Shown here: positions 1 to 18,739 of the stretch, one piece after another | Layout: each line of letters opens with the position of its first letter | Numbering within the stretch: position 1 is the stretch's first letter | From: Candidatus Hodarchaeota archaeon | GTDB taxonomy: Archaea; Asgardarchaeota; Heimdallarchaeia; Hodarchaeales; Hodarchaeaceae | Direction: 5' to 3' | Assembly (NCBI GenBank): GCA_029856365.1 | Contig: JAHQWW010000012.1 | Span: 1 to 56,520, forward strand | Length of the DNA: 56,520 nucleotides | Position numbers and translations under genes: made by a program | Notes under the pieces: generated by a model | Told to the model about the DNA's origin: nothing | Databases searched by the model: none | What the model saw: the letters and a program-made list of their open reading frames with translations, nothing else

Positions 1-17
1 GGACGTTAGGCGCATTA

Positions 18-1070: not shown

Positions 1071-1240
1071 TTTATTCCACACAGAAATCGCAGTTAGGAG
1101 GTAATTTTATTAACATCTCTTCCTGCAACAAATACCCCCTCTCCTTAAACAACTGAGAAAAGAAGAGTAGGACGGGTCGAAAAAAATTAAAAGGGGTATT
1201 TAATATTAAAGAAATCCTAAGTATGAATGTGGTGACATAA

Positions 1241-2110
1241 TTGGTATTGTTTGATACAATCTGGACAGAAGTACTAAGGGATTTGTTTCCTTGGGCAAAG
1301 GATATTCTCAAACTGATCACTGAACTAGGATCGAACACTATTTATCTGGCAGTAATTCTTGTGATTTTCTGGGGAATCAATAAAAGATTTGCCAAAACAA
1401 CCGCCTTTGTCGTTGTAGGCTCGACAATATTAAATTATTGGCTCAAAGCTATCTTGAAACATCCTCGACCTAACCCCAGTCTGTGGTTAACTAGTACATC
1501 AAATTATAGCTTCCCCAGTGGCCATGCGCAGAGTTCAACTACATTCTATGGGTGGCTCAGTATAAAAATTAAAAAATGGTGGATGTTTATTGGGGGAACA
1601 TCATTGATTATCCTTATTGGGATTTCACGTATCTATTTAGGAGTGCATTGGCTAGGAGATGTGCTACTTGGGTGGGGAATTGGAATAGCGATTGTCATGT
1701 TGGTTTGGCGATTTGAACATCCCATAAGGAATTATCTCTCCCATTATAATACTTATTATTTATATATGGGACTAGCTCTATTAGGAGGAGTTGCGATTAT
1801 TCTTACGGAATTAATTCTCCCAGTTCCCACTGATAATTTTGGCGGAAGTGGAGGAATTGTTATTGGCTTAGCACTTGGATTAGCCCTGGAGAAGAAATTT
1901 GTTGATTTCAAAGTCAAAATTCCAGAGAAAAAGACATGGAAAATCATGTTGCGAATACTTATCGGGTTAATCCTAGTCCTAGTTTTGTACTATGGTTTAT
2001 CTCCATTCTTACCTTCTGAAGAGGTGCTACCGACAGCCCTCCGCTATTTTCTTGTTGCTTTAGTTGGAGCTTTTATTTGGCCTCTAATTTTTTCAAAGAT
2101 AGATCTTTAG
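1241..2110 (+). CDS. PAP2-family membrane phosphatase
   Basis: KxxxxxxRP (KAILKHPRP), PSGH and SRIYLGVHW motifs; multiple TM helices. Confidence 0.92.
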   Translation: MVLFDTIWTEVLRDLFPWAKDILKLITELGSNTIYLAVILVIFWGINKRFAKTTAFVVVGSTILNYWLKAILKHPRPNPSLWLTSTSNYSFPSGHAQSSTTFYGWLSIKIKKWWMFIGGTSLIILIGISRIYLGVHWLGDVLLGWGIGIAIVMLVWRFEHPIRNYLSHYNTYYLYMGLALLGGVAIILTELILPVPTDNFGGSGGIVIGLALGLALEKKFVDFKVKIPEKKTWKIMLRILIGLILVLVLYYGLSPFLPSEEVLPTALRYFLVALVGAFIWPLIFSKIDL

Positions 2111-2232
2111 GTAAATGTCACAGTATATTCTCCAGATCAACATAAAACTAATCAATTATTTTTAAAATGACATAAAGATTGATCTCAGCTGGTTTAGATT
2201 ACAAGAGTATATAGTAAACATGTCGTGTTTTT

Positions 2233-2760
2233 ATGAACAGCCGAAAAATCATTCAAACGTTAATATGGGAGTTAGAAAGGGGATTTCAAGAATTGATACA
2301 AACATTAATGGAAATTTCTAAGGAGGAGGCAAAATGGAAACCCACTGCTTGTTCTAGAACATTAGAAACAATTAGGCAATGGAATGAACAAGGAAATGAA
2401 TGGATTTCATCACAATCTCTTGACCCCATCTCTAACATCGAATTTAAAGTAGTCCACTTAGCACAATGTAAGCAAATGTATGATGAATATGCTTTTAGAG
2501 AGGGAATACTGACTTGGCATGATCTCGAATGTCCAGAGTGGCCACACTGCATTGATTATTTGAAAGAAACTCAAAAAAGATTAGTTGAAAGTCTTCAAAA
2601 TCAGACAGATGAACAATTGGATGACCTGGTTCGGACAAATTGGGGTGATATGTGGCCAATAAAACAAATAATCTCAACGATGACTCATCACGATATGTAT
2701 CATTTGGGTCAAATTTGTACGGTAAGGAACCTCTATAAAATGAGGAAAAATGGTAACTGA
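2233..2760 (+). CDS. DinB/YfiT-family protein
   Basis: N-terminal His (VVHLAQC) and C-terminal HHDMYHLGQI metal motif; four-helix-bundle size. Confidence 0.85.
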   Translation: MNSRKIIQTLIWELERGFQELIQTLMEISKEEAKWKPTACSRTLETIRQWNEQGNEWISSQSLDPISNIEFKVVHLAQCKQMYDEYAFREGILTWHDLECPEWPHCIDYLKETQKRLVESLQNQTDEQLDDLVRTNWGDMWPIKQIISTMTHHDMYHLGQICTVRNLYKMRKNGN

Positions 2761-2788
2761 AAAAAGCACTTAAACGCGTTCGGTCTCT

Positions 2789-2808
2789 TTTATCATCATA
2801 ATGATAAA
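2789..2808. promoter_or_regulatory. Perfect 8-bp inverted repeat (TTTATCAT-N4-ATGATAAA), possible operator next to a TATA-like box
   Basis: Palindrome lies directly before CTTAAATA (2811-2818), ~80 nt upstream of the tautomerase start. Confidence 0.35.
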
Positions 2809-2890
2809 GTCTTAAATATTTAGGAAATCAAGTAAGTAACAAGAGAATTGAAGATTAATATCGAACAATAAAGTTGATGAGGAGATATAT

Positions 2891-3097
2891 ATGCCTGTTG
2901 TCCATGTCCATATTTGGAAAGGGATCTCTGAAGAGAGAATTAAGGAAATAATTGAAGGTATTACGAATGTATTCGTGAAAATGGGGATTCCTACTCAAGC
3001 AGTAGAAGTCATTATTCACGAAATCCCTAAAGCTCATTGGGGTATTGAGGGGAAACCCGCAACTGAGTCCCGAAAAGATTCAAAACCACCAATCTAA
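2891..3097 (+). CDS. 4-oxalocrotonate tautomerase family (DmpI-like)
   Basis: Catalytic Pro after Met (MPVVHV), WGIEG motif, 68 aa, GAGGAG RBS. Confidence 0.92.
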   Translation: MPVVHVHIWKGISEERIKEIIEGITNVFVKMGIPTQAVEVIIHEIPKAHWGIEGKPATESRKDSKPPI

Positions 3098-3201
3098 TTC
3101 AGCTTAAGGAAAGATTTTAAACCGAAAAATGATTTTTTTAAATTCTTTTTAGAGCAGTAGCAGCTCTAACATTATAACTTGGTTAATAAGATAAACATAG
3201 T

Positions 3202-4029
3202 TTAGAAATTCTCAATTGATTGTTCAGAACGTATAGCTTGTATTACTGTGGCAAACTCCAGATCCAAATCTAATAAAGCTTTTTTTCCTCGCACTGTTAA
3301 ATCGCTAATAAATTGGAATTGATCACGAGCATCAATAGGATAAGCTTTCAGTTTATAATGTGTTCCCCAGGGCTTTTCCTTGACAATAATCTCAACGGGT
3401 TTTTTCAACTGTAGAAAAGGACTTGTTATAGCCACATCATATAGTATTCGCTTGATTAATGTAGCATCGTGTTTTGGGTTTAAGTAGAAATCTGTTACAG
3501 AAAGTAGCTCTCTACTTCCACTAGTGGAGTTAAAGATAGGACTATCCCACATTCTTAATTGTGGAATACGTACAATATTATCATCAGGTGTTCGGAGTTC
3601 TAGTGATCTTAAACCGATTGAAACAACCTCTCCATAAATTCCATTGATTTCGATCCAATCACCAGGCCGATAGGGCATTTCATACAGTGTCACAATACCT
3701 GCAATCAAACTACTAATGTATTCCTTAAGAGCGAAACCAAGAGCAATTCCCATAGCTCCCAAAAATGCAATAAGGTTTTCAGTTGTAGGAATGATGATAA
3801 GAGGGAAGATGATGATAAAAACACCGACAATTATAATTAAGCGTAAGATTGGCATGAGAGCCAATATATACAATCTGCGTTTTCCAGAAAATTTATTAGC
3901 TAAAAAAGGGATCCAATAACGATTTAGCTTCATAACAAGCCATGAAATGGTTAGGATTGCAATGATGAAGAGAATTTCAGTGCTTGTCAAAGATCTAAAA
4001 AATAAAATTTCCCCATTTTGATAAATCAT
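3202..4029 (-). CDS. mscS: MscS-family mechanosensitive channel
   Basis: GIALGFALKEYISSLIAG, PYRPGDWIEI and GEVVSIGLRS motifs. Confidence 0.92.
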   Translation of the reverse strand: MIYQNGEILFFRSLTSTEILFIIAILTISWLVMKLNRYWIPFLANKFSGKRRLYILALMPILRLIIIVGVFIIIFPLIIIPTTENLIAFLGAMGIALGFALKEYISSLIAGIVTLYEMPYRPGDWIEINGIYGEVVSIGLRSLELRTPDDNIVRIPQLRMWDSPIFNSTSGSRELLSVTDFYLNPKHDATLIKRILYDVAITSPFLQLKKPVEIIVKEKPWGTHYKLKAYPIDARDQFQFISDLTVRGKKALLDLDLEFATVIQAIRSEQSIENF

Positions 4030-4042
4030 CCTATTTTATCTC

Positions 4043-5293
4043 CTAGATATCATCAATTAAGTAACCTTCACTATTTAAAAATTCTCTTATCCTTGGGTAA
4101 GCTATGGCTGATACAATCCAATTATCTCCCCTATTTTCAATCAATCCTAAACGTTTCAATTTATTGAGACTTTGTGTCACTTCTTCTAGCGATATAGGTA
4201 AGATCTGGGATAATAATTCAATCGAAAGACCGTTATGGAGCAATACCGCGTGGAATACATGGGATTCATTTCTTTTAACGCTTTCAGGTATGATTGGGAG
4301 TTCAACTTTTTCCCAAGGCAACACCCAGATGGTTCGCCGCTTATTCCTTGGATCCATTTCCAACTCGTCTTCTTTCAATAGTAATTCTTCATCAGGATCT
4401 GTACGTAGACTGGTACGCCAGATTTCCCAACTAACGAGTGGAATACCAGAACTATACCCTGCTAAGTTCTTTAAGAAGTTATTATCATACCTAGGTTGCT
4501 TTTTTGCATCTTCTATTGGAACTTCTGAACTCAATACATATTTTCCTGTAGTTGTTTCCCTGAAAAAAAGATCTCTTCGTGTTGATTGCCTGAACAACGA
4601 TTTAAGCCATATATTCAATCTTTCATAATCAAGAGCTTTGAGTACCAATATTGTACGGGCATAAGTGTCAATTTTCATTGTATGTTTTAGATAAGTCCAA
4701 GCCCAACTATCTATTCCCATTACGCATTGACAAGAATTTGACCATAACCAGTCAAATAATTCTCGTATAAGTCTAAGTCCTTTTACATGACGTAAATAAT
4801 AGTGTTCAAGATTTGGTAAGACAAATGGAGTGTCCTTACCTTTGATATAATGCTCAATCCAATTCAAGTCATCGTTTAGAATTTCAGTTCTAGGTGGGGG
4901 ATCAAGGATTAACCAACATTGATCTTTTCCCCAAATTGTCAATATTTCTTGGGTGCCTCCAAATGGGTGACATAATACAACGGCAACATTACCTTTAGAA
5001 GCCCCAGATTTTACCCATTCGTCCAAAGCTAAGTTTAACGCATTTACAGCTCCAGTCCAATCTGGAGAGGGAACAATCCGGTCTAATTTCGTTAAAGGAA
5101 TTACGGTCAATTCCTTTTGAGTCAAAGGTAGGTCTGTACTCTCTTTAGTGGGCCATAATTTCTGAAATACTCCTATAATTCCTTGCCTTACCGTCTCTTC
5201 GAGTGGTTTTGGGGGTTTTATATATTGATTTATAGGTATAAATTGCCATAACTGTGTTGGATCTATAATTTGAACCTTGGAGTTAGTCATCAC
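4043..5293 (-). CDS. MscS-associated protein: degenerate P-loop/AAA-like domain with C-terminal winged HTH
   Basis: Walker-A-like site VVLCHPFGGTQEIL lacks GK[ST]. SSGIP helix motif. C-terminal wHTH (LSIELLSQIL..VTQSLNKLKRLGLIE). 13 bp upstream of mscS on the same strand. Confidence 0.55.
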   Translation of the reverse strand: MMTNSKVQIIDPTQLWQFIPINQYIKPPKPLEETVRQGIIGVFQKLWPTKESTDLPLTQKELTVIPLTKLDRIVPSPDWTGAVNALNLALDEWVKSGASKGNVAVVLCHPFGGTQEILTIWGKDQCWLILDPPPRTEILNDDLNWIEHYIKGKDTPFVLPNLEHYYLRHVKGLRLIRELFDWLWSNSCQCVMGIDSWAWTYLKHTMKIDTYARTILVLKALDYERLNIWLKSLFRQSTRRDLFFRETTTGKYVLSSEVPIEDAKKQPRYDNNFLKNLAGYSSGIPLVSWEIWRTSLRTDPDEELLLKEDELEMDPRNKRRTIWVLPWEKVELPIIPESVKRNESHVFHAVLLHNGLSIELLSQILPISLEEVTQSLNKLKRLGLIENRGDNWIVSAIAYPRIREFLNSEGYLIDDI

Positions 5294-5359
5294 GTAGGTT
5301 TCCCTAAAAACAACTTAAATAAGAAAAAATATGATAAGAACTTAGGTTAAGATTCGTTG

Positions 5360-5731
5360 TTACGTTTTCAGTCTTTTTTCAGTTTCTTTTCGTTTCTTCT
5401 CAGCTTCCTTCTTCACTTCTTCCTCCTCTTTTTTAGCTTTCTTCTCAGCTTCCTTACGTTTGTGTTCAGCTTCTTTCTTTTGTTTCTCCTCTTCTTTTTT
5501 AGCTTTCTTCTCAGCTTCCTTACGTTTATGTTCAGCTTCTTTCTTTTGTTTCTTCTCTTCTTCTTCACGTTTCTTGCTTGCTTCTTGTGCTTTCTTCTCA
5601 GCTTCCTTCTCTTTCACTTCTGCTTCTTTTCTTTTTTTCATTGATTTTTTCTCAAACTCTTCTGCTTCTTTCAGTTTTTTCATTGCTTCCTGCTTCTTTT
5701 TCTCCGCCTCTTTCTTCTTTTTTTCACTCAT
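5360..5731 (-). CDS. Lys/Glu-rich single-alpha-helix (ER/K) low-complexity protein
   Basis: 123 aa, nearly all K/E/A/R/Q; GGATGGTG RBS-like sequence upstream; internal repeat. Confidence 0.7.
   Translation of the reverse strand: MSEKKKKEAEKKKQEAMKKLKEAEEFEKKSMKKRKEAEVKEKEAEKKAQEASKKREEEEKKQKKEAEHKRKEAEKKAKKEEEKQKKEAEHKRKEAEKKAKKEEEEVKKEAEKKRKETEKRLKT
5430..5560. repeat. Intragenic tandem repeat, 66-bp period, ~2 copies
   Basis: TAGCTTTCTTCTCAGCTTCCTTACGTTT recurs at ~5434 and ~5500; encodes KQKKEAEHKRKEAEKKAKKEEE twice. Confidence 0.85.
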
Positions 5732-6020
5732 TCAAAAAACACCATCCTATTTAGTTCTAGGAAATTCATGTCATCATGGTATAAAAGCATTGTATATAAT
5801 TTCTCGTAGAAAATTAAGGAATTATGATTCTATATATCACTAATAAAGCTCTTAATTTCGGTATAGATGAGAAAGAAATATATCTATTTCTAAAATGCTT
5901 TTCTAAACTAAAGGAAAAAATTTTTTATGTATAATTTATGAGATTAAATCCTTGCTAGGATAAAATTTTTAAGAAAATAACATCTACTAGCCATTATATC
6001 AAAGAAGGATATGAACTCTG

Positions 6021-6449
6021 TTGGTGACAAATAAATTATTAGAGATGTTAAATGAGACAATCTCAAAGGAGATGCAAGTTTCTATTCAATACATGTGGCA
6101 ACATGTATTATGGAGAAGCCCAAAACATTATGCCATTAAGGAAGAGTTTAGAAAGATTGCTATTGAAGAAATGGGTCATGCTGAAAAGACAGCGGAAAGA
6201 TTATTTTATCTAGGTGAAGAACCAACAACAAAACCCGCTCCAATATCCTTAGGGGGAAATCTAAAAGAAATGCTCGAAAATAATAGTAATGCAGAAAAAA
6301 AAACAATAGAATTTAACAAGCGAATAATTAAACAAGCCCAAACAAACAATGATGTAACAACAGCTTTCATTTTTCAAGAAATTTTAGATGAGGAGGAAGA
6401 ACATCATGATACCTTCCAAAGTCTTCTTGAAGCGGATGATTCCATTTAA
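6021..6449 (+). CDS. Ferritin-like / bacterioferritin-type diiron protein
   Basis: ExxxxxQY, EEMGHAE and EEEEHH ferroxidase-type motifs. Confidence 0.9.
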   Translation: MVTNKLLEMLNETISKEMQVSIQYMWQHVLWRSPKHYAIKEEFRKIAIEEMGHAEKTAERLFYLGEEPTTKPAPISLGGNLKEMLENNSNAEKKTIEFNKRIIKQAQTNNDVTTAFIFQEILDEEEEHHDTFQSLLEADDSI

Positions 6450-6637
6450 AGAGATGAGTATAATATCTATCTATGTACCTACATTTCGATTATGCCAAAA
6501 TTATAATTGGAAATCGACAGATCGGACAAAAAGCAGGTCTCTTCTTCTTTTTAGTTAATTAAGAAATTTGATTTTGATTGAATGTTCTGACCCACAGATG
6601 AAGTTGAAAATAAATTTGGATAAGGAGATAAAATCTA

Positions 6638-7735
6638 TTGTTCCAAGTAGTTCAAACAGGACCAAAAAGAATTCCATCAATTCTAAAAAAAAGAAAAAAG
6701 AAAGTAGGTCTTCCTCCTGGTACTCCCATTTTTATTGGTCGTATAAAAACAGAAGAGATAAAGATAACTGTTTTAGATTATGATGAAATTAAATGTGAAG
6801 AAAAAGAAGTTAAGACAGTAGAAGAATGTTTACCTTTTAAGGCAAGACCAACTATAACATGGATTAATATTGATGGACTGCATGACATTACTACTTTAGA
6901 AAAGTTTGGAGAACATTTTAATTTACATCCTTTATTATTAGAAGATATTCTCAACACAGATCAACGGCCAAAAATTGATGATTATGAAAATCATCTCTAT
7001 GTAGTTTTAAAAATGCTTAATTACAACGAGGAACGAAAAAGTGTTATCATTGAACAAGTTAGTTTAATTCTTGGAGAAAATTACGTTTTGTCTTTTCAAG
7101 AAAGACCCGAAGATGTTTTTGATCCCATTCGTGAACGTATAAAAGGGAAAAAAGGGAAGATCCGATCCTATGGTGCAGATCACCTTTTTTACGCACTAAT
7201 TGATGTTATTGTCGATAATTATTTCTTAATTCTAGAAAAATTAAGTGAGCGAATTGAATTTTTGGAAGAAGAGGTGGTTAAAGCTCCAGGAACTGAGACT
7301 TTACAAATAATCCATTCTCTAAAAACCAATATCATTTTCATACGTAAGGCTGTGTGGCCCTTAAGAGAATTAATTAGCCGATTAGAACGTGGGGGATCAG
7401 TATTGATACAAGCTGAAACCTCAAAGTACATTAGAGACGTTTATGACCATACTATCCAAGTGATCGACACAGTGGAAACGCTCCGAGATATTGTTTCAGG
7501 TATGCTTGACATTTATCTTTCCAGTATTAGCAATAAAATGAATGAAGTAATGAAAGTGCTTACCATTATCGCTACAATCGTTATTCCAATGACAGTAGTT
7601 TCTGGAATCTATGGAATGAATTTTCAGCTTATGCCTGAATTAGCTTGGCCTATTGGTTATCCTATGGCTCTTTCTTTGATGTTATTGGTTGCTATAATCA
7701 TGTTAAGTTATTTCTGGAAGAAAGGTTGGTTGTGA
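6638..7735 (+). CDS. corA: Magnesium/cobalt transporter CorA
   Basis: GLPPG N-terminus, QRPK, YGMNF signature, MPEL loop, KKGWL C-terminus. Confidence 0.97.
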   Translation: MFQVVQTGPKRIPSILKKRKKKVGLPPGTPIFIGRIKTEEIKITVLDYDEIKCEEKEVKTVEECLPFKARPTITWINIDGLHDITTLEKFGEHFNLHPLLLEDILNTDQRPKIDDYENHLYVVLKMLNYNEERKSVIIEQVSLILGENYVLSFQERPEDVFDPIRERIKGKKGKIRSYGADHLFYALIDVIVDNYFLILEKLSERIEFLEEEVVKAPGTETLQIIHSLKTNIIFIRKAVWPLRELISRLERGGSVLIQAETSKYIRDVYDHTIQVIDTVETLRDIVSGMLDIYLSSISNKMNEVMKVLTIIATIVIPMTVVSGIYGMNFQLMPELAWPIGYPMALSLMLLVAIIMLSYFWKKGWL

Positions 7736-7778
7736 CTGACGTACATTGTCATGGAGTGACATTTGACTTTCTTTAACC
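7695..7778 (+). repeat. Direct repeat copy 1 (corA 3' end plus downstream flank)
   Basis: 84 bp; ungapped match to 16646-16729 with 8 mismatches. Confidence 0.92.
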
Positions 7779-7976
7779 ATCGGAACGGTGGATAAAACTA
7801 GTAGAGTAACAAAAAATTGTAATGAGTCTTAATTCAATAATTTTTAGAATATAGGTTCAGGATAAATCCATTTAATTCTTTTGGGAATAATTCTAAAACG
7901 GTTTAGTTATAGGGAAATTCTTGAAATAACTATTTGGTATCAATGAAATATTTTTAAGGGTACAAATAATCTAAAA

Positions 7977-8417
7977 ATGATCATGGCTAATCGTTTACGT
8001 GTCGCTTATTTAGAGAGATGTATAGGTTGTTATCAATGTGTGTTAGCTTGTGCTCGGGTGAACGAAAAATCATTATCTGTGGATAGATCATCCATAAAAG
8101 TCAAAACTATAGGAGGATATGAGGGTAGTTTTGCAATAATCGTATGTAGAGGATGCTTAGAACCTCCTTGTGTACCTGTATGTCCAATTGAAGGAGCAAT
8201 TCGTGCTAGGAGTCAAGGTGGAGGAATTTTGGTGAATAGGAAGATATGTGACTCGACAAAATGCCACCAAGAATGCGTAACAGCATGTCCAATCCCAGGT
8301 GCCATACATATTGACCAAGAGCTTAAGAATGCGATAGTATGTCGACAATGTAGTACCTGTACAAAATTTTGTCCTACTGGAGTATTAATAATGGAGGAAC
8401 CCAAACTCGGATTCTAG
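7977..8417 (+). CDS. 4Fe-4S polyferredoxin, small subunit of the adjacent AOR-family enzyme
   Basis: CIGCYQCVLAC, CRGCLEPPCVPVCP and CRQCSTCTKFCP Cys clusters; immediately upstream of the AOR gene. Confidence 0.92.
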   Translation: MIMANRLRVAYLERCIGCYQCVLACARVNEKSLSVDRSSIKVKTIGGYEGSFAIIVCRGCLEPPCVPVCPIEGAIRARSQGGGILVNRKICDSTKCHQECVTACPIPGAIHIDQELKNAIVCRQCSTCTKFCPTGVLIMEEPKLGF

Positions 8418-8428
8418 AGGATAAAACA

Positions 8429-10228
8429 ATGTCTTCCATACCTCAGGATATTTTAGAAATAAATCTGACCACCCAAGAAGTACAGCGATACTCAAGACCT
8501 GAATTATTTGAAAAATGGATCGGGGGATTAGGAGTTGCCATAAATCTCTTGAATGAACATGTTCCTCCTAATGCGGATTCTTTAGGTCCTGAAAATGCTG
8601 TTATTTTCGCAATTGGTTCGTTAAATACTTTTTTTCCAATTATTTCTAAAACAGTTGTTACCTTTAAAAGCCCTCTTACAGGCGACTTAGGAGAATCTTA
8701 TGCTGGAGGACGATTGTCTCTTGCCATGAGATTTTCTGGTCTTGGAGCTATCATTATTAAAGGTACAGCAGAAAAATCTAGCTATATTACAATCGTTGAT
8801 GATCAGGTTGAGATTAAGCGAGCGGGTCCTCTTGCATATATGTATACAACAACACTCGGGCGTGTCTTACGGGAACTTATACCCGTGGGACCAGGGAGAA
8901 GATCATCAATTCGTATTGGGCCAGCAAGTGAAAATCTCGTAAAATATGGCAATGTTGTAGTTGACAGCTTTCGTCACTTTGGGAGATTAGGATGTGGTAC
9001 AGTACTAGGTGCAAAAAAAATCAAAGCCATAGTGATAAGTGGTGAGAAAGATCTTTCCTTAGAAGAACTTATGCCTGATAGACGCGTCTATCTTAAGACC
9101 TATCAAACGATTTGGGATTCCTGCGTTAAAACTGATGTAATGAAGAAGTATCATGTCTTGGGGACTGCCCAAAATATATTACCACTAAATGAATTAAATG
9201 CTCTTCCGACGAGGAATTTCATGAAAGGGAGATTTGAGCATGCAATTGATATTTCAGGAGAAAAATTTGCTGAAGCCTATCTTGGAAGACGTGTCGCCTG
9301 TAATACGTGTCCTGTAGGATGTATTCATGTTGCCATTCTTCGTGAAAGATATGGAGTCGATTCACCTGCTGATATCCATTCTATTGCAGTTCCATATGAT
9401 CACGAACCTATAGGTATGTTAGGATCAACCTTAGAATTAGGTAACGGGATTCAAGTCCTTAAATTGATAGAACAAAGCGAAAAATTTGGTATTGATGCCA
9501 TAACAGTGGGAGTTATCCTTGGTTGGTTAGCAGAAGCCTATGAAAAAGGAATTATCAATGATTCTGATACAAATGCACAGCCTATTCGATTCGGGCATTT
9601 AGATGATTTTATTTCGGTTATTAAGAATATAGCTAATCGTGATCCTAATATAAAAGATCTTTATTGGTTGGCAGGAGAAGGACTGAATGCTTTAGTTGAG
9701 AGATATAGTGATGGAAAGCATTTTGCTGTTTGTTTTAATAATAATCCCCCTGCTGCATACTCTACTGGGCCATATAATGTAATTGGACATATAATAGGAG
9801 GCAGACATTCTCATCTGGACAATGCAGGGTATTCCTATGATCAAAAAACCATTGGAAAAACCGTTGAACCAGATGAAGCAATCTCTAAGTTATGTAAAGA
9901 GGAAGAATGGCGCAATATTCTAAATTCCTTAATAGTTTGTCTTTTTGCCCGAAATTTGTATACTCCTTCTCTCGTTTCCGAATGTTTAGGGAATCTGGGG
10001 ATCTTAAAAACAGAGAGAGAACTACTTAATCTTGGATTGGAAATTCAAAAAATAAGACTAAAAACTAAATTTCAATTTGGATATCAACTTCAAAGAATAC
10101 GAGATAGACTTCCCAGGCGAATTTATGAAATGCCAACTGGTCATGGCATTTTATCAGAAAACAGCATAAAAAAACTCTTGGATGCTTATGAAGATATGTT
10201 GAGAACACGTTATGAATTAAAAATATAG
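8429..10228 (+). CDS. Tungsten/molybdopterin aldehyde:ferredoxin oxidoreductase family (possibly GorL-like GAP oxidoreductase)
   Basis: KSPLTG, IGPASENLV, RHFGRLG, CNTCPVGC and HSHLDNAGYS motifs. Start moved to ATG 8429 behind GAGG. Confidence 0.9.
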   Translation: MSSIPQDILEINLTTQEVQRYSRPELFEKWIGGLGVAINLLNEHVPPNADSLGPENAVIFAIGSLNTFFPIISKTVVTFKSPLTGDLGESYAGGRLSLAMRFSGLGAIIIKGTAEKSSYITIVDDQVEIKRAGPLAYMYTTTLGRVLRELIPVGPGRRSSIRIGPASENLVKYGNVVVDSFRHFGRLGCGTVLGAKKIKAIVISGEKDLSLEELMPDRRVYLKTYQTIWDSCVKTDVMKKYHVLGTAQNILPLNELNALPTRNFMKGRFEHAIDISGEKFAEAYLGRRVACNTCPVGCIHVAILRERYGVDSPADIHSIAVPYDHEPIGMLGSTLELGNGIQVLKLIEQSEKFGIDAITVGVILGWLAEAYEKGIINDSDTNAQPIRFGHLDDFISVIKNIANRDPNIKDLYWLAGEGLNALVERYSDGKHFAVCFNNNPPAAYSTGPYNVIGHIIGGRHSHLDNAGYSYDQKTIGKTVEPDEAISKLCKEEEWRNILNSLIVCLFARNLYTPSLVSECLGNLGILKTERELLNLGLEIQKIRLKTKFQFGYQLQRIRDRLPRRIYEMPTGHGILSENSIKKLLDAYEDMLRTRYELKI

Positions 10229-10554
10229 AAGAAATGAGGAAAATTATTAAAAATTGGTGAATTCTAATATCTTATTTCTCAGGATATAATATATCTAAAA
10301 ATTAAAAATGATGCTTATCGTCATCTTGCGACTGCTTTCATTATTTTACCCTTAACTGTTACAGTTATGTTAACCTTAGATATCCCATTAGTTCTTCATT
10401 ATTTTGGAACTTTGGGTGATATATTAATCATTGTTGGGTCATTATTCGGTAAACGGGCAAAAACAAACCTCATTCAAATTTTACAGGTCAAGGAAATTTT
10501 AGAGGCAAAATCAAAATTATAATAATAGCAATTAAAAAAATTTGGGATAATTTA

Positions 10555-11532
10555 GTGATAAAAATGAAAAAAATTGGTGTTTTATGTTCTGGTGGGGACG
10601 CACCAGGTATGAACGCAGCTTTACGTGCTGTAGTCAGAAGGGGGATAGCAAAAAAATTGAAAATAATAGCAATATACCGTGGTTTTGATGGTATCTTTCA
10701 AGAATATTTTGAAGAAATGACAGCAAGATCAGTGGGAGACATTGTTCAAAGAGGAGGAACTATTATAAAGACAGCAAGATGTGAAAAGTTTTTTATAGAC
10801 GAAGGAGTTAGAGAAGCAGCAGAAATTTTAAAAAAGCATAATTTTGATGGTTTATGTGCTCTTGGAGGTGATGGAACCTTCAAAGGGTTATTAGCGCTTC
10901 AAAAACACTGGAATGGTCAATTAATAGGTATTCCAACCACTATTGACAATGATGTCTATGGAACGGATTATACCGTCGGATTTGATACAGCAATTGATAC
11001 TGCAATCCAAGCGCTTGACAAAATTCGAGATACCGCAGAGAGTCATGAACGAATATTTATTGTCGAAGTAATGGGACGCGAATCAGGTTATATAGCGTTG
11101 GAAGTGGGAATTGGAGCAGGTGCAGAAGAAATATTAATTCCAGAGGAAGCTCCCGTTGATTTTGCTGCTTTAGCAAACCGACTTCGTTCTGCTAGGGAAA
11201 GGGGTAAGAAGAGTATTATCATAGTTGTCGCAGAGGGAGCTGATGAAAGAGACATTTTCACGTTTTCTAAAGAGTTGATGAAATATTTGGATGTTAAAAC
11301 ATATCTTTCTATCCTTGGTCATGTTCAGCGAGGTGGTGCACCTAGTGCTTTGGATCGATGGCTTGCCACTCGACTTGGAGCATTTTCAGTTGATTGTTTT
11401 CTTAATGGGGATACTGGGATAATGGTTGGCGAACAAAACCATCAACTTGTCAAGGTTCCACTTATAGAAACCCAGAAGAAAAAACCAATTGAGAAGTATG
11501 CCTTCAGTCTTATTCAAGATCTAGCCATCTAA
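10555..11532 (+). CDS. pfkA: ATP-dependent 6-phosphofructokinase (PfkA family)
   Basis: SGGDAPGMN, GGDG (Gly at the ATP-specificity position), TIDND, EVMGR, LGHVQRGG. Confidence 0.96.
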   Translation: MIKMKKIGVLCSGGDAPGMNAALRAVVRRGIAKKLKIIAIYRGFDGIFQEYFEEMTARSVGDIVQRGGTIIKTARCEKFFIDEGVREAAEILKKHNFDGLCALGGDGTFKGLLALQKHWNGQLIGIPTTIDNDVYGTDYTVGFDTAIDTAIQALDKIRDTAESHERIFIVEVMGRESGYIALEVGIGAGAEEILIPEEAPVDFAALANRLRSARERGKKSIIIVVAEGADERDIFTFSKELMKYLDVKTYLSILGHVQRGGAPSALDRWLATRLGAFSVDCFLNGDTGIMVGEQNHQLVKVPLIETQKKKPIEKYAFSLIQDLAI

Positions 11533-11584
11533 TATTATATCATCAATTTCTCTTTATTTTTACCAGATTTCATTATCAAAGATA

Positions 11585-13768
11585 TCAAGAGGAATTTGAC
11601 AGGATTTTTGCATACAACTTCAGAGAATATTCTTTTAGCATTCTTCGTGCCGAAAAAAAAGGCAGAGTCGAACGAACTGCTTCACGCATCACTTTGATCC
11701 AATTAAATGGGATATTTTCGGGTTCAAAATCATAATATAATGGAATTATTTGATTTTCTAGAATGTTATAAAGACTCTGAACATCGGTCCAATCTTGGGC
11801 AACAATATTATTTTCCTCAATATTTTGAGGATTTATTGCCCATCCATTCAATCCATTATTTCCCTCAGCCCACCAACCATCAAGAATAGAGAGGTTTGGA
11901 ATGAAATTCAAGCATGCTTTCATTCCTGAAGTTCCTGATGCTTCATTATAGCGTCTGGGAGTATTTAACCAAACATCAACTCCTTGTAGTAGGATTTTAG
12001 CAGTTTTTAAATCGTAATTTTCAACAAAAGCAATGCGATATCCTAAATCGGGGTTTTTGGCATAATTATAGATTTGTTGAATATGTAATTTTCCTGCATC
12101 ATCGTTTGGATGAGCTTTTCCTGCAAAAATAAATTGAATTGGTTTATATGGGTCTTCGATCAATTTTTTCAATCTCTCGAAATCAGAGAAAAGTAATGTT
12201 GCTCTTTTATAGGTAGTAAATCGGCGCGCAAATCCAACTGTGAGTACGTCAGGATCTAGGAGAGCGCCACTTGCTAATGCTATTTCAGAATTCCAATAAC
12301 CACTTTTTTGATAATTTCTTGCATTTTCTCTAATGAATTTGAATAATCTACGTTTAGCAGCTAAATGATATTCCCAAATTTCATAATCGCTTATTGTGTA
12401 TTTATCCAATATCTTATCCCAGAAAGCGGGTTCATCCTGATGATCTCGCCAATTATCATCAACTATTCTAAACATTCGTTGGTAAATTTCTGATAAAAAG
12501 CTCAGGACATGCACACCATTTGTAATAGACTCCATAGGTTTAAAATCGGAGTATTTTGTTTTTAATTCGCTAATAAGAGGTTGGAACATCTTATTTGCAA
12601 CTTCTAGATGGAGTTTTGAAACTGCATTTGTATAATAAGCTGTTTTTATCCCTAATACAGTCATATTGAACCCATCTCCCCTTCCAGAACCAAAATCATA
12701 AGATCCAAGTGAATAAAAAATCTCCATTCCAAATTCATCTATTATTTCCTTAAAATAAGTATTGATCAACCAGAATGGGAAAACATCATGTCCCGCTGGA
12801 ACTGGTGTATGGGTTGTGAATAGAGTCTTTGAGCGGACTTCGTTTAGCGCATTATCAAAATTTAAACCTTTATTTACAATTAATTGCCTTATCCGTTCTA
12901 TTGACGAAAAACTACAATGGCCCTCGTTCAAATGAAATAACAAGGGTTTAATTCTTAGTTTGTTGAACAAACGAACCGAACAAATTCCCAAAACCATTTC
13001 TTGTTGTAATCTAAGTTCAGATCCCCCGCCATAAAGACGATCCGTTAGATCACGAAACCAAGGAACATTCTCAGAGATATTAGAATCAAGTAAAAAAAGT
13101 TTAATGCGTCCAACATTAACTTTCCAAACTTTTACATAAACCTCCATCTCATCCTTCATTTCTACAGAAATCAATAGAGGTTTTCCGTTCTCTAAATCTA
13201 TTACTTCTTCAATCGGCAAATTATCAAAATCGTATTCCCTAAATACTTCTTCTTGCCAACCATTACGAGTAGAACTGATTTTTTGCGTAAAATATCCTTC
13301 TTGATATAGGAATCCGACTGCTACAATTGGGACGCCTAGATCACTTGATTCTTTAAGATGGTCACCTGAAAGAATCCCTAAACCTCCCGAATAAATAGGT
13401 AAGGAATTATGTATACCATATTCCATACTTAAATATGCAATTTTAGCAGTTTTATATTCAGGAAAGGTCTGATTCCACCATAAATGGTCTGCATCTTTTA
13501 ACATCTCGGTTTTAAAATCCTTCATAACTTTATGATATAAAGCTAGAAAGCTTTTCTTGTTTGCCATTCTTTCTAAGCGTTCATCAGTCGTATAACGTAA
13601 AATAAAAATGGGATTATGATTCGAGTGCCAGAGAGGTGGATCTAGGATTTTAAACATCTCCCTAGCATCTGGATCCCAAGACCACCAGAGATTGTATGCT
13701 AGGTTCACTAATCCCTTCAAATTTTCCGGGACTTTTTTGTTAAGCTTTAAACGTATCATTTTTATCAT
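11585..13768 (-). CDS. glgP: Alpha-glucan (glycogen/maltodextrin) phosphorylase
   Basis: YSGGLGILSGD, NEGH, FARRFTTYKR and PLP-lysine motif EASGTSGMK. Confidence 0.96.
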   Translation of the reverse strand: MIKMIRLKLNKKVPENLKGLVNLAYNLWWSWDPDAREMFKILDPPLWHSNHNPIFILRYTTDERLERMANKKSFLALYHKVMKDFKTEMLKDADHLWWNQTFPEYKTAKIAYLSMEYGIHNSLPIYSGGLGILSGDHLKESSDLGVPIVAVGFLYQEGYFTQKISSTRNGWQEEVFREYDFDNLPIEEVIDLENGKPLLISVEMKDEMEVYVKVWKVNVGRIKLFLLDSNISENVPWFRDLTDRLYGGGSELRLQQEMVLGICSVRLFNKLRIKPLLFHLNEGHCSFSSIERIRQLIVNKGLNFDNALNEVRSKTLFTTHTPVPAGHDVFPFWLINTYFKEIIDEFGMEIFYSLGSYDFGSGRGDGFNMTVLGIKTAYYTNAVSKLHLEVANKMFQPLISELKTKYSDFKPMESITNGVHVLSFLSEIYQRMFRIVDDNWRDHQDEPAFWDKILDKYTISDYEIWEYHLAAKRRLFKFIRENARNYQKSGYWNSEIALASGALLDPDVLTVGFARRFTTYKRATLLFSDFERLKKLIEDPYKPIQFIFAGKAHPNDDAGKLHIQQIYNYAKNPDLGYRIAFVENYDLKTAKILLQGVDVWLNTPRRYNEASGTSGMKACLNFIPNLSILDGWWAEGNNGLNGWAINPQNIEENNIVAQDWTDVQSLYNILENQIIPLYYDFEPENIPFNWIKVMREAVRSTLPFFSARRMLKEYSLKLYAKILSNSS

Positions 13769-13787
13769 CTTACAATGAATTTTTTTG

Positions 13788-16367
13788 TTAAAATTGAACT
13801 CTCTGATAAAATATTTTCTTCAATCCTTCAGAAGTTATTATGTACACGATAATTATAAATGCTATATATAATAAAAATAGTAAAGGAATCTTTATAAATC
13901 CTAGAAACTCCCCTAACGGTGTAAAAGGAATTATAAGGGTGATAATGGCTATTACAATGCTTGTGATCAGTAAAGACTTGCTTGGTAGACTCTCATAAAA
14001 TTGTCTTTTAGTGCGAATGACAAAGAGAATGAATAATTCAGTTAAAATAGAGACCAAGAACCATCCTGTCCGAAATTCTGTTATTGAAGCTTGAAAAATC
14101 ACCAAGAGAACGAAGAAAGTAATGATATCGAAAAATGCACTAGCAAGCCCGAAAATAACCATGAATTCTGTAATGAATCGTATATCCCATCGTTTAGGTT
14201 TTTGAACCATTTCTTCATCAACACTATCTGTAGCTATAGTCATCGATGGGAAATCTGTTAGAAAATTGATAACAAGTAATTGTTCGGGTAATAAGGGGAG
14301 AAAAGGTAGGAATAAGGATGCTATTGCCATACTTACCATATTTCCTAAATTGGCGCTGATTGTAATCCAAATATACTTGATCGTGTTTATGAAAGTTCGT
14401 CTCCCTTCCTGTATTCCATTAAGAAGAACTGTTAAATCCTTTTCAAGAAGAACTATTTGAGCTGCTTCCTTAGCTACATCCACTGCGCTTTCAACTGAGA
14501 TCCCTATATCTGCAGCATGCAATGCAGAAGCATCATTAATCCCATCACCCATATAACCGACTACATTCCCAGATTTTCTTAAAGCCAGAATGATTCGCTC
14601 TTTCTGATTCGGTTCAACCTCTGCAAAAATATCTACATTAAGGGATTCTCTTAACAATGCTTCATTGCTCATCTCACGAATCATGTTGCCAGTAATAACA
14701 TTTGGTTGTGACCAACCGAGTTCTTTCCCAAGACTCTGGGCAATAAATCGGTTGTCTCCTGTAATAATTTTAAGAGATATATTTAGTTCTTTCAAATCTT
14801 TGATAATATTTTGGATATTACTCTTCGGTGGATCATAAAATATTAGAAAACCTAAAAATATCATTTTAGATTCCAGTTCTTTCGTTAATTCCGTTGATGA
14901 ATCCAAAAACCTATAAGAAACCCCTAAAGTCCGAAATCCACTACTACTGAGTTCTTTGTATTTATTTTGAATTAGTGCTTCTACTTTAGAAATATCAACA
15001 AGATTATCTTCAGAAATTTCTGTTGTTGTACATACTTGAAGAATATTAGGAACAGCTCCTTTAGTAACTATGAGTGATTGTTCTTTAAAGTCAACAAGAA
15101 TACTTAATCTTTTACGGATGAAATCATACGGAATTTCACTAGTTTTTCTAATATCATTTAAGTTAAAATTATATTGAGAACTAAGAGCTTCATCAATAGG
15201 ATTTTTGAATCCATCCTGAAAATAGGCGTTGATATAGGCAAATTTCAATAATCTCTCACTCTTCTCACCATAAATGTTTAATGCAGAGTGCAATTTCATT
15301 TTTCCTTCAGTAAGAGTTCCAGTTTTATCTGAACATAATATATTCATACTCCCAAAGTTCTCAATTGCGGTTGGCTTTTTTACAATAACCTTAACATCAG
15401 CCATTCTCTTTGACCCCCGAGTTAGGTTAACACTTATAACAGCAGGTAATAATTGCGGAGTTAGACCGACTGCAAGAGCTATTGCAAATAAAAAAGAATC
15501 AATCACAGGTCTAGAGACATAAACATTGATTCCAAATACAATTATTACTAATATTAATACTATTTCCATTAATACGTATCCAAAACGTTTAATTCCACGT
15601 TCAAAATCATTAATAGGTTCTTTTTGGGTCAAATGTTCAGAAATTTTTCCAAACTCTGTATTTAATCCAGTTTCAACGATAATAGCTTTTCCTCTTCCAC
15701 TTACTACATGTGTTCCCATGAATAGGGAATTTATACGTTGATTCAAGGGAGTAGTTTCATCCAATATGATATTAGTTTTTTCAGATGGAAATGTTTCCCC
15801 AGTTAAAGATGCTTCATCAACAAATAAATCTTTAGAATCAACAATTCGGGAGTCCCCAGGAATAACGTCCCCTGCAGACAGGATAACTAGATCACCAGGT
15901 ACTACATCCTCTATAGAAATTTGCTTCTGTAGCCCATCACGAATTACCGTTGTTTTAATGTGAACAATTGATAACAGCGCTTCAACTGCATTTGAAGCCA
16001 TTCTTTCCTCCCAAAATCCAATAAAACTACTTGCAAACACTATTGTAATAATAATTAAGGTATCTAACTTGTCTGCTGTGAGAAATGCTAAGATTGAGGT
16101 AATTATGAGGATTAAGATGATTGGACTTTTAAATTGAGCTAAAAATAGAAATAAAGAATCAGTTCTTTTCTTAGGTTTCAATTTATTATATCCAAATTTA
16201 ATTAACCGTTCCCTGGCCTCTGTTTCAGTAATTCCATTAGATGAGGTTTGTACCTTTTCCATTACTTCATCTATAGAAAGATTCCAAAATCCGTTGTTAA
16301 CTTGAAACTTTTGGACATCTCTAGGGTTAAAATCTCCAGATTCTTTATTTTCTATCAATATTCTCAC
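13788..16367 (-). CDS. mgtA: Mg2+-translocating P-type ATPase (P3B)
   Basis: DKTGTLT, TGET, GDGIND, AVGLTPQLLP, IPYDFIRKR and FRTGWF, typical of MgtA. Confidence 0.92.
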   Translation of the reverse strand: MRILIENKESGDFNPRDVQKFQVNNGFWNLSIDEVMEKVQTSSNGITETEARERLIKFGYNKLKPKKRTDSLFLFLAQFKSPIILILIITSILAFLTADKLDTLIIITIVFASSFIGFWEERMASNAVEALLSIVHIKTTVIRDGLQKQISIEDVVPGDLVILSAGDVIPGDSRIVDSKDLFVDEASLTGETFPSEKTNIILDETTPLNQRINSLFMGTHVVSGRGKAIIVETGLNTEFGKISEHLTQKEPINDFERGIKRFGYVLMEIVLILVIIVFGINVYVSRPVIDSFLFAIALAVGLTPQLLPAVISVNLTRGSKRMADVKVIVKKPTAIENFGSMNILCSDKTGTLTEGKMKLHSALNIYGEKSERLLKFAYINAYFQDGFKNPIDEALSSQYNFNLNDIRKTSEIPYDFIRKRLSILVDFKEQSLIVTKGAVPNILQVCTTTEISEDNLVDISKVEALIQNKYKELSSSGFRTLGVSYRFLDSSTELTKELESKMIFLGFLIFYDPPKSNIQNIIKDLKELNISLKIITGDNRFIAQSLGKELGWSQPNVITGNMIREMSNEALLRESLNVDIFAEVEPNQKERIILALRKSGNVVGYMGDGINDASALHAADIGISVESAVDVAKEAAQIVLLEKDLTVLLNGIQEGRRTFINTIKYIWITISANLGNMVSMAIASLFLPFLPLLPEQLLVINFLTDFPSMTIATDSVDEEMVQKPKRWDIRFITEFMVIFGLASAFFDIITFFVLLVIFQASITEFRTGWFLVSILTELFILFVIRTKRQFYESLPSKSLLITSIVIAIITLIIPFTPLGEFLGFIKIPLLFLLYIAFIIIVYIITSEGLKKIFYQRVQF

Positions 16368-16645
16368 CGATAGAAGATAGATATAAATTCATATGTCAAT
16401 TACTAAATCTTGTTTTGATAATAGTAGTTTTTTATCTTAATTAACTATAAAAAGTTATTCCCTTGAGAAAGGAAAGATTCTGAAAGAAGATAGTGTGAAC
16501 TTCTCACTCTTAATTTTTATCAATAGCATAACATATAAGTGAATTCTATTCACCTAACATCGACTTCAATTCGGATAAATAACGCCGAATTTCCGTGTTT
16601 ATCCAGTATATAGGAATGATATTTTCCACCCTACTAATTAACTTT

Positions 16646-16729
16646 TAATCATGTTAAGTTATTTCTGGAAGAAAGCTTGGTTATAACTGACGTAAATTGT
16701 CATGGAATGATAGTTGACTTTCTTTTACC
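16646..16729 (+). repeat. Direct repeat copy 2: orphan corA 3' end (MLSYFWKKAWL*) plus flank
   Basis: ~90% identical to 7695-7778, first 30 bp identical; no corA sequence upstream. Confidence 0.92.
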
Positions 16730-16768
16730 CTAAATCAAGAGTATAATTTTAAAGCAACGCTTTCCCTG

Positions 16769-17328
16769 TCAGCTGGCTTCTTCAAGAATCATATAGCCAG
16801 AAACTCCTACAGCTATTCTACCAATACCAGTGAGTAAAAATCCCCACGCTAACAGAAAGATCAAGGAAAGGTACCCTAGAGTTGGGAAGACTATCACGAT
16901 AAAAGAAAGAAAGATAGACAATACTCCAAGGATTATCAAGATGCTTCGGAACCACGTTGGTAAGTCAGTATCTGAGCCTCCAACCGTGATTCTGGCAATT
17001 CCCTGAAGCATCAATCCAATCGCAAGAATAAAGATCAAAATCTCAATACCTAAGTCAGGAAATATTACTACAACTATGCCCAATGTTAGTGCTGCTAAAC
17101 CAACAATGATATTTAACACACGCATCTTTTTGTGAGATGTTCATCAAAAAAACCATTGAAAATTCTGGCAAGTCCTGCAAAAATCATGATGAGTGATAGA
17201 ATGAAAATTAATGTTAGCGTGGCAAGTCCAAAGTTTAAAATTACAATGACAGAAAAAATTATGAATAACAATCCAGCTATAATGTTGAAAATTCTTAATC
17301 AAACCGGAATTTTAAGCGAAATAGTCAT
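16769..17328 (-). pseudogene. HdeD/DUF308-family membrane protein, disrupted
   Basis: ATG at 17328 gives MTISLKIPV*LRIFNIIAG... with in-frame TGA at 17299-17301 where paralog 21567 has Trp. A 1-nt loss in an A-run near 17127-17131 joins it to ORF 16769-17125. Confidence 0.8.
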
Positions 17329-17695
17329 ATTTTTCACCTACTAACCATCCTCTTTTCACATTATTTATTTAAAGCAAACCAGAGATTTTTAAAATTAATC
17401 TGATACTGCAGGGGAACATTGGGATATCATTCTGAATTATTCGTTGATTTTGTGGTTAAGCAGTTTTCATGTGATAAGAAGGAGGATTTTAAGACTTCAT
17501 ATTGTCATCCTAATTATTCTCTTCTCTCAAAGTTTGGATCCTCTCACCGAGAATAACATAAAAGACGTTCGATACGATAGAGGAGTCTGATAGACATGTG
17601 ATCTTTCATTCCTTATAATTTAAGTAGCTAATATTTTAAAAGAAGCTGTGTCAAGAACGATTACAGTGATATTTGTATTAAAAAAGTGAGAAACA

Positions 17696-18739
17696 TTGAT
17701 TACGCAAGCTTCGATTGAAGAACAAGCAATTATTGCATTTGCTTTCATAATTGGGGGATTGTTTCTTGGATTAATTCTGGAGATCATTGTTTTTGCTAGA
17801 TTTAGAAAAGTTATAGGTAAAGCAAAATGGAAAGGAGCCGAAATAATTGTTAAGGCTTTTCGTGGTATCCCTATCTTCTGGTTTATGATGATAGGCTGCT
17901 ATGGTGCTATTCTAACCATCGATTTCGTATATTTATTTGGTGTTGATACCTCAGATCTATTTATCAAGATTATATTCATTTTATTTACTCTTTCAATCCT
18001 TTTAATACTCGCTAGAGCTACCAGTGGTTTTGTAATCCATTATGCAGGTAAAACAGAAGGAGCTCTGGCAGCTACCTCCATCGTGACTAATTTGATGAAT
18101 TTCATTTATCTTTTACTCGGGTTTCTTATCATAATTCAATCATTAGGTCTTGATATTACTCCTTTGTTAACTTTACTTGGGGTGGGGGGATTAACTGTTG
18201 CGTTGGCACTTCAACCCACCCTTTCAAACTTCTTTGCTGGTGTTTATCTTCTTGCATCAAGAGAATTTAAGATAGGAGATTACATCAAACTTGATACTGG
18301 TGAGGAAGGATATATTACAGATATGACATGGAGACATACAATTATTCGCCCACCAGCAAGATATGATATAATTATCCCAAACGCTAAACTATCGACAGCT
18401 ATAGTGACGAATTTTGGGGTTTCTGATAAAGAGACTGCGTTAACCGTACCCGTTGGTGTTGGCTATGATAGTAATCTTAATCATGTTGAGCAGATAACTA
18501 TTGAGGTTGCTATGGAAACTATTCAGCAAGTACAAGGAGAACTACCGTCAATAAAACCGTATATTCGCTACCACACTTTCGCTCCTTCAAGTATTGATTT
18601 TTCTGTTAACATTTATTCTAAAAATTTACGTGATCGAGCCAGAATAAGGCATGAATTTATTAAAAACCTTTTTGAACGATACCAGCAAGAAGGAATTGAT
18701 ATTCCATTTCCTACATCTGTTATTATATCAAAGAAATAG
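17696..18739 (+). CDS. mscS: MscS-family mechanosensitive channel (5-TM type)
   Basis: LGVGGLTVALALQPTLSNFFAG, FKIGDYI and GIDIPFP. Confidence 0.95.
   Translation: MITQASIEEQAIIAFAFIIGGLFLGLILEIIVFARFRKVIGKAKWKGAEIIVKAFRGIPIFWFMMIGCYGAILTIDFVYLFGVDTSDLFIKIIFILFTLSILLILARATSGFVIHYAGKTEGALAATSIVTNLMNFIYLLLGFLIIIQSLGLDITPLLTLLGVGGLTVALALQPTLSNFFAGVYLLASREFKIGDYIKLDTGEEGYITDMTWRHTIIRPPARYDIIIPNAKLSTAIVTNFGVSDKETALTVPVGVGYDSNLNHVEQITIEVAMETIQQVQGELPSIKPYIRYHTFAPSSIDFSVNIYSKNLRDRARIRHEFIKNLFERYQQEGIDIPFPTSVIISKK

Follow-up and report, generated by a model that had tools for sequence, protein, structure and literature searches.

The DNA analysed here, referred to as the window, is a 56,520-nucleotide (nt) stretch from Candidatus Hodarchaeota archaeon (assembly GCA_029856365.1, contig JAHQWW010000012.1, positions 1 to 56,520), and the subject is a block of metabolic and transport genes that lies directly behind corA. 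Judged from comparison with related genomes, segment 7779–16645 (8,867 nt) is an insertion between corA and its ancestral neighbours, a DUF308/HdeD-like gene and mscS. The block is an old insertion of horizontally acquired ordinary genes, now fixed in one Hodarchaeales species, and the 84-nt direct repeat that brackets it is the scar. The block cannot move by itself, and nothing points to movement today. With moderate confidence, we attribute it to host recombination that captured DNA from a related archaeon and was anchored on corA homology.

The two repeat copies (7695–7778 and 16646–16729) aligned without gaps and were identical at 76 of 84 bases. Realignment thus reproduced the repeat given in a preliminary description of this DNA, together with its make-up: the last 41 nt of corA, whose stop lies at 7735, and 43 nt of trailer. 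The first 30 nt were perfectly identical, the eight mismatches fell at repeat positions 31, 38, 40, 50, 62, 66, 68, and 81, and beyond the repeat edges the similarity ended abruptly on both sides. In a BLAST search of the genome (4.24 Mb, 204 contigs) the pair gave an E-value of 4e-27 and the next match 0.09; there was no third copy in the whole genome. This search, which the preliminary description had suggested, showed two copies only, so the 84-mer is not a dispersed multi-copy repeat.

The assembly holds one corA gene, and its C-terminus (KKGWL) agreed with the orthologues. The orphan copy translated as I-M-L-S-Y-F-W-K-K-A-W-L-stop, with the last 11 corA codons still readable, and no corA sequence was found 5' of position 16646 by alignment or by tblastx of the spacer. 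Compared with the gene copy, the coding part of the orphan had Ala in place of Gly, a synonymous TTG/TTA difference, and another stop codon (TGA/TAA). Overall divergence between the copies was 9.5%. When the differences were polarised with G009, G014, and L126, three changes were derived in copy 1 (TTG, TGA, and one trailer site), and four or five were derived in copy 2, interleaved with those of copy 1. As derived changes occur in each copy, both have drifted since their common ancestor. This pattern would fit an in-situ duplication as well as two tails from closely related lineages, and does not discriminate between them.

Empty sites in relatives carried the evidence for an insertion; eight related species or populations had such a site, in which DUF308 and/or mscS came directly after corA. 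Orthologues of corA at 87–90% amino acid (aa) identity were present in six species of the same genus. In G009, G011, G015, and G019, mscS followed corA directly, and the genes beyond it were those of the window as well; five further metagenome-assembled genomes (MAGs) of the G011 species likewise showed corA and then mscS. Most telling was the site in L126 and L127, two assemblies of one population (99.93% identical), which had the order corA, trailer, a 68-aa DUF308 remnant, and mscS. Their DNA homology to the window extended up to 7754, resumed exactly at 16646, and ran to 17093 through DUF308, so that the orphan fragment is continuous with native downstream DNA. Because the homology jumps from 7754 to 16646, copy 1 holds the native left flank and copy 2 the native right flank. 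The 43-nt trailer is ancestral, since G009 retains a recognisable homologue of it. L126 (empty) and the contig L129 (filled) came from the same JGI sample.

These empty sites, which are collinear with both flanks, support the earlier proposal that a cassette was inserted at the corA 3' end and left the gene intact. A full second corA, which would have spoken against that proposal, was found in none of eight species or populations. Other genes followed corA in G007 and G014, again with no duplicated tail, and no other species was seen to use a duplicated corA tail as a landing site. In G014 the genes behind corA (MFS transporter, cyclophilin, MFS-OYE fusion, nitroreductase, and others) were unrelated to those of the window, and G007 had no mscS gene behind corA. 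The DNA 3' of corA thus varies across the genus, without duplicated tails.

The structure was also present in independent assemblies. The ENA contig L125 (45.9 kb) matched window positions 3138–17735 at 99.7% and crossed both junctions, and the JGI contigs L128, L129, and L130 crossed the left junction at 99–100% identity. The recurrence of the junctions in these contigs from other samples removed the misassembly concern raised in the preliminary description. The block was present in five of five contigs of this species, and no polymorphism was seen.

Between the repeat copies, Pfam, TIGR, and NF profiles confirmed the gene content first described: a ferredoxin-like subunit with an aldehyde:ferredoxin oxidoreductase (AOR), a phosphofructokinase (pfk), a glycogen phosphorylase (glgP), and a magnesium-importing ATPase (mgtA) (Table 1). 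Assignment of the AOR as glyceraldehyde-3-phosphate ferredoxin oxidoreductase (GAPOR) was ruled out, as the GAPOR model scored only 18 bits. A gap of 19 nt separated mgtA from glgP, which lies downstream of it on the same strand. The G+C content of the block (0.32–0.40) was near the flank values. No gene remnants were detected by tblastx in the three spacers (198, 326, and 278 nt), and the DNA to the right of copy 1 resembled the native corA–mscS spacer of G009 no more than shuffles did.

Several comparisons pointed to a foreign origin of these genes. Among 21 other species of the genus, the best glgP match reached at most 70% aa identity; the best AOR matches in the genus were 63–71% aa and the best P-type ATPases 29–42% aa. 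The genome keeps its own paralogues of pfk (contig C203, 68% nt identity) and of the fer4-AOR pair (contig C179, ~70% nt), and the cassette pfk and fer4-AOR are therefore additional copies. In 5.8 billion proteins and the GTDB species set, the nearest MgtA homologue was at most 59% identical (aa), with the nearest ones scattered over bacteria and archaea; the donor search via mgtA returned nothing above that value. The preliminary description had linked the second magnesium transporter to corA. Nothing beyond adjacency was found for this link, and mgtA has a separate evolutionary history.

Close copies of the module were found on three other Hodarchaeota MAG contigs (L135–L137). L136 (GCA_048886445.1) carried glgP-pfk-AOR-fer4 at 90–93% nt identity, flanked by a DeoC-like gene and tRNAs, and on the other side by an inverted mgtA of a different type (56% aa). 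In L137 (GCA_048940615.1), glgP-pfk was present at 91% nt, and the fer4-AOR part was inverted with respect to pfk-glgP. The Lys/Glu-rich gene that stands left of dps and corA in the window had an orthologue (76% aa, 81% nt) directly beside this module (1–5737), with no dps or corA between; the genes flanking the module had at best scattered 65–91% nt matches in the genus, without conserved synteny. L135 carried glgP-pfk only (83.6% nt), and its syntenic backbone genes were merely 66–70% identical (nt) to this genome. Homology with L137 began at 7903 and with L136 at 7930. The 84-mer was found at none of the borders of these three modules. The block is built from at least three sub-modules (7903–10381, 10421–13800, and mgtA), and these comparisons show the cargo to be foreign and modular, its modules having moved among Hodarchaeales lineages. 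In L136 at 2509–2878 we observed in addition that 55 nt (84% identity) from the 3' end of a window-type mgtA persist as a remnant, located upstream of glgP, between it and the different mgtA. It is a second orphan gene tail tied to the same module.

No integrase, transposase, recombinase, excisionase, replication or transfer gene was found in or beside the block, in which every open reading frame was accounted for, and the earlier statement that no recombinase is present was borne out for the block and its surroundings. In the genome, which is 84% complete, the sole recombinase found was an XerA orthologue on contig C92 (NF040815, 282 bits), and neither an SSV-type integrase (PF16795) nor a serine recombinase (PF00239) was detected. 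Terminal inverted repeats were absent (best end-to-end inverted match 16 against a shuffle mean of 18.5). A transposon, insertion sequence or casposon was rejected, as there was no transposase and no inverted repeat and the duplication of 84 nt is not short. The repeat and spacers contained no tRNA or tRNA fragment, riboswitch or Rfam family, and, with regard to XerA/dif-type (IMEX-like) integration, a dif-like 11-nt dyad was not seen in the repeat when judged by eye only. An exact-pattern scan of the JGI contigs, which is a weak negative, showed neither a circle junction nor a precise-excision product, and the phosphorylase had no match in IMG/VR. As all five contigs of the species carry the block, present mobility is unsupported.

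The layout of gene, segment, insert, segment, and native downstream DNA is expected from a site-specific integrase, a circle crossover, a linear capture, and a repair duplication. Of these, capture driven by the host is favoured because the cargo circulates among related lineages without an att sequence or a recombinase, because L137 has the module at apparently the same locus, because the block contains no element-like gene, and because one-sided homologous capture is documented as a source of orphan 3' ends (PMC5361080). The donor would have been a related archaeon in which the module already stood behind corA, and its DNA would have been integrated by the recombination machinery of the host. 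It is plausible that in some lineage the module is native to this locus, since the L137 module adjoins the Lys/Glu-rich orthologue; orthologues of that gene adjoin corA in relatives. Two routes may be considered. In the first, a linear fragment would have entered by homology-facilitated illegitimate recombination, with a homologous crossover in corA on the left and an illegitimate join 41 nt before the recipient stop codon on the right. In the second, a circular fragment with a corA tail would have entered by a single crossover of the Campbell type. By either route corA would stay intact with the cargo placed behind it, and a further tail of slightly different sequence would remain. Copy 1 provides the end of the working corA, and copy 2 is the leftover tail and trailer on the original downstream DNA.

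Some observations weigh against such a capture. In no sampled genome was corA directly followed by the module. The corA gene showed no phylogenetic oddity compared with its neighbours: its tree was a star without resolution, and corA, mscS, and the next gene all ranked the relatives in the same order. With 9.5% divergence between the copies, the junctions are too old for a microhomology search. A recombinase may reside on an unbinned element, given the incomplete MAG, and one ancient gain followed by loss in a sister clade may also be considered, as the species tree does not resolve.

One alternative is a decayed or cis-mobilizable site-specific element, for which a tyrosine or serine recombinase would have used the corA tail as attB and whose recombinase gene was later lost or acted in trans. 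The preliminary description had leaned to such an att-like reading. The layout resembles attL/attR, with a direct repeat of a gene 3' end, a restored gene, and a single copy in the empty sites; the repeat opens with its 30-nt perfect stretch, and the incompleteness of the MAG leaves room for a missing gene. However, the block and its surroundings lacked any recombinase, excisionase, replication or transfer gene, and the genome offered XerA only. The modules travel elsewhere without the 84-mer, no other species reuses the site or shows a duplicated corA tail, no circle or excision product appeared in the exact-pattern scan of the JGI contigs, and the phosphorylase had no match in IMG/VR. The repeat also had no dyad symmetry or stable fold, and its trailer folded no better than shuffles. 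The att-like reading is not supported, and we consider such an element unlikely.

A duplication in situ is likewise doubtful. Here foreign DNA would have been joined into a staggered break, or template-switched, behind corA, the 84-nt target being copied on both sides and drifting later. The scattered derived changes, about equal in number in both copies, agree with this, and the trailers are nearer to each other (38/43) than to that of the nearest relative G009 (36/43 for copy 1 and 34/43 for copy 2). A donor corA would also be unnecessary. On the other hand, target duplications of 84 nt are unusual, and the mechanism is a one-off, yet gene-tail duplications recur in this genome, which suggests a more regular process.

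The preliminary description had also offered a tandem duplication of the corA region, after which most of the second corA was lost and the gap filled. As this would require, the orphan is a genuine end of corA and has the orientation of the gene. The interior, however, is foreign DNA: it contains no local duplicates, and its genes are xenologues with their nearest copies in other lineages. Upstream of 16646 there is no corA sequence, more steps are needed, and two complete corA genes were not seen in any of the eight species or populations, which makes this course of events very improbable.

An assembly artefact, to which the left 3.1–3.7 kb of the window contig (resembling a chimeric join with another species) might have pointed, is refuted for the block itself and keeps practically no weight, since both block junctions recur in L125 and L128–L130 and the copies show the same eight differences in all assemblies.

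Among known systems, a close likeness is with the orphan 3' ends that arise by homology-facilitated illegitimate recombination, or C-terminal displacement, in the effector–immunity arrays of the Vibrio cholerae type VI secretion system (T6SS) and in Rhs and contact-dependent inhibition (CDI) loci (PMC5361080). There, as here, the homology anchor lies in a conserved gene, the old 3' end is displaced next to the original downstream DNA, and a recombinase gene is absent. In those loci, the incoming DNA swaps a variable toxin end in serial events, whereas at corA a housekeeping magnesium channel was restored and 8.9 kb of metabolic and transport cargo was gained in a single event in an archaeal host.

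Integrative and conjugative elements (ICEs), together with integrative and mobilizable ones (IMEs), also enter at the 3' ends of protein genes, for example ICESt3 at fda and SGI1 at trmE, and cis-mobilizable elements (CIMEs) are their integrase-less derivatives (PMC5704250, PMC7563491, PMC8409611). They share with the corA block an island bracketed by a direct repeat of a protein-gene 3' end, an intact gene, and, for CIMEs, the absence of an integrase. CIMEs, however, carry recognisable ICE or IME remnants and have att cores in common with intact elements of the same species group, whereas no intact relative, common att core, helper integrase or site reuse was found for the corA block. Campbell-type 'pop-in' of circular DNA yields exactly the layout of the block; such integration is best known from plasmids and laboratory use, and no natural circular carrier of the block was seen in the junction scan of JGI contigs or in IMG/VR.

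In Asgard archaea, the described mobile elements include aloposons, HeimM/HeimV (both PMC8813620), and elements integrated in Atabeyarchaeia (PMC11529989). Like the corA block, these are integrated DNA with cargo genes in an Asgard host. Their targets are tRNA genes or short motifs, and among their genes are integrases, the giant Otus/Ephialtes genes, ParA/ParB or viral genes, none of which the block has. Identity of the block with an aloposon or another known Asgard element was rejected, as it has no tandem giant genes, no MinD/ParA-like set, and no tRNA target (for the aloposon definition, see PMC8813620). Within an incomplete coverage of the literature, we found no description of integrase-less blocks bracketed by gene tails in Asgard archaea.

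Self-comparison of the genome revealed other gene-tail repeats. Direct repeats of gene 3' ends with their flank were present on contigs C173 (1853–2000/8015–8164; 150 nt, 85% identity), C125 (2987–3078/5124–5210; 92 nt, 84%), C41 (2050–2227/8776–8952; 178 nt, 89%), and C186 (590–685/2167–2262; 96 nt, 81%), with the orphan copies 1.6–6.7 kb from the gene. No integrase lay between the C173 and C125 pairs, where the scanned genes were ordinary (solute-binding protein, radical SAM, transglutaminase-like); the C41 and C186 intervals were scanned in part. Because of these further duplications, it is a tentative possibility that Asgard archaea routinely capture accessory blocks behind the 3' ends of conserved genes in an integrase-independent, homology-anchored manner, each capture leaving an orphan tail.

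If this is true, routine 3'-end capture would offer Asgard archaea a general route for their extensive gene import, with the corA case as a clean single-event example that has an empty site. Asgard genomes are large and rich in imported DNA, but little is documented about its entry routes; the elements described so far have integrases and go into tRNA sites. The present locus is useful in this respect, as filled and empty sites occur in the same sediment metagenome, the cargo can be traced to other lineages, the junctions are verified, and there is no mobility gene. The gain behind a housekeeping gene consists of an extra glycogen-to-glycolysis set, an AOR, and a magnesium pump. Taken alone, the locus is an old recombination scar of an ordinary kind, and its cargo is ordinary as well; its value is that of a clean case in which an Asgard archaeon gained genes without an integrase. 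Alongside similar cases, it could contribute to defining a host-driven route by which genes are captured in the prokaryotes most closely related to eukaryotes.

Table 1. Features of the corA locus and the inserted block, in window coordinates.
Feature	Coordinates	Strand	Remarks
Lys/Glu-rich repeat protein gene, 123 aa	5360..5731	-	Conserved locus marker left of dps-corA
dps/ferritin-like gene	6021..6449	+	Pfam PF00210; native, kept in some relatives only
corA Mg2+/Co2+ channel gene, intact	6638..7735	+	TIGR00383, 338 bits against a cut-off of 201
Repeat copy 1	7695..7778	+	Last 41 nt of corA and 43-nt trailer
Left spacer of block	7779..7902		No match in relatives or other module copies
Ferredoxin-like 4Fe-4S subunit, sub-module A	7977..8417	+	Pfam Fer4 families; 92-94% aa to L136/L137
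AOR-family enzyme, sub-module A	8429..10228	+	PF02730, PF01314; 93-94% aa to L136/L137
ATP-dependent 6-phosphofructokinase, sub-module B	10564..11532	+	NF002872, 373 bits; 87-96% aa in L135-L137
Alpha-glucan (glycogen/maltodextrin) phosphorylase, sub-module B	11585..13768	-	TIGR02094, 748 bits; 84-91% aa in L135-L137
MgtA-type Mg2+-importing P-type ATPase, sub-module C	13788..16367	-	TIGR01524, 774 bits against a cut-off of 611
Right spacer (mgtA upstream region)	16368..16645		No match outside this species; no Rfam family, e.g. Mg riboswitch
Repeat copy 2	16646..16729	+	Orphan corA tail and trailer; no corA sequence 5' of the copy
DUF308/HdeD-like membrane protein gene	16769..17271	-	PF03729; ancestral right-hand neighbour of corA
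MscS-family channel gene	17696..18739	+	Native; directly after corA in most relatives

The left end of the window contig showed a peculiarity outside the block. Window positions 34 to ~3700 were 100% identical to L126, the species with the empty site, and the identity was ~90% thereafter. Left of 3138, the assemblies L125 and L128 of the own species carried quite different genes, among them histone, GGACT, and MFS genes. The left end probably results from chimeric joining at a stretch common to both, or else from very recent exchange. An interspecies mosaic around corA, which had been considered from the 95.8% identity of L126 over 34–5794, was dropped, as the step from 100% up to ~3700 to ~90% beyond indicates a chimeric contig end.

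The native neighbours of corA also varied among relatives. The DUF308 gene of the window was apparently split into overlapping frames at 16769–17125 (118 aa) and 17113–17271 (52 aa); it survived as the 68-aa remnant in L126 and was not found between corA and mscS in G009, G011, and G019. This gene is decaying across the genus. The dps/ferritin gene was present in G011 and G019, not found next to corA in G009 by tblastn, and reduced in L126/L127 to its last ~118 nt (L126 5771–5815), a further presence/absence difference beside corA. The 123-aa protein at 5360–5731 consists almost wholly of Lys/Glu-rich repeats of 7 and 14 residues, and its gene is a single-copy neighbour of corA across the genus.

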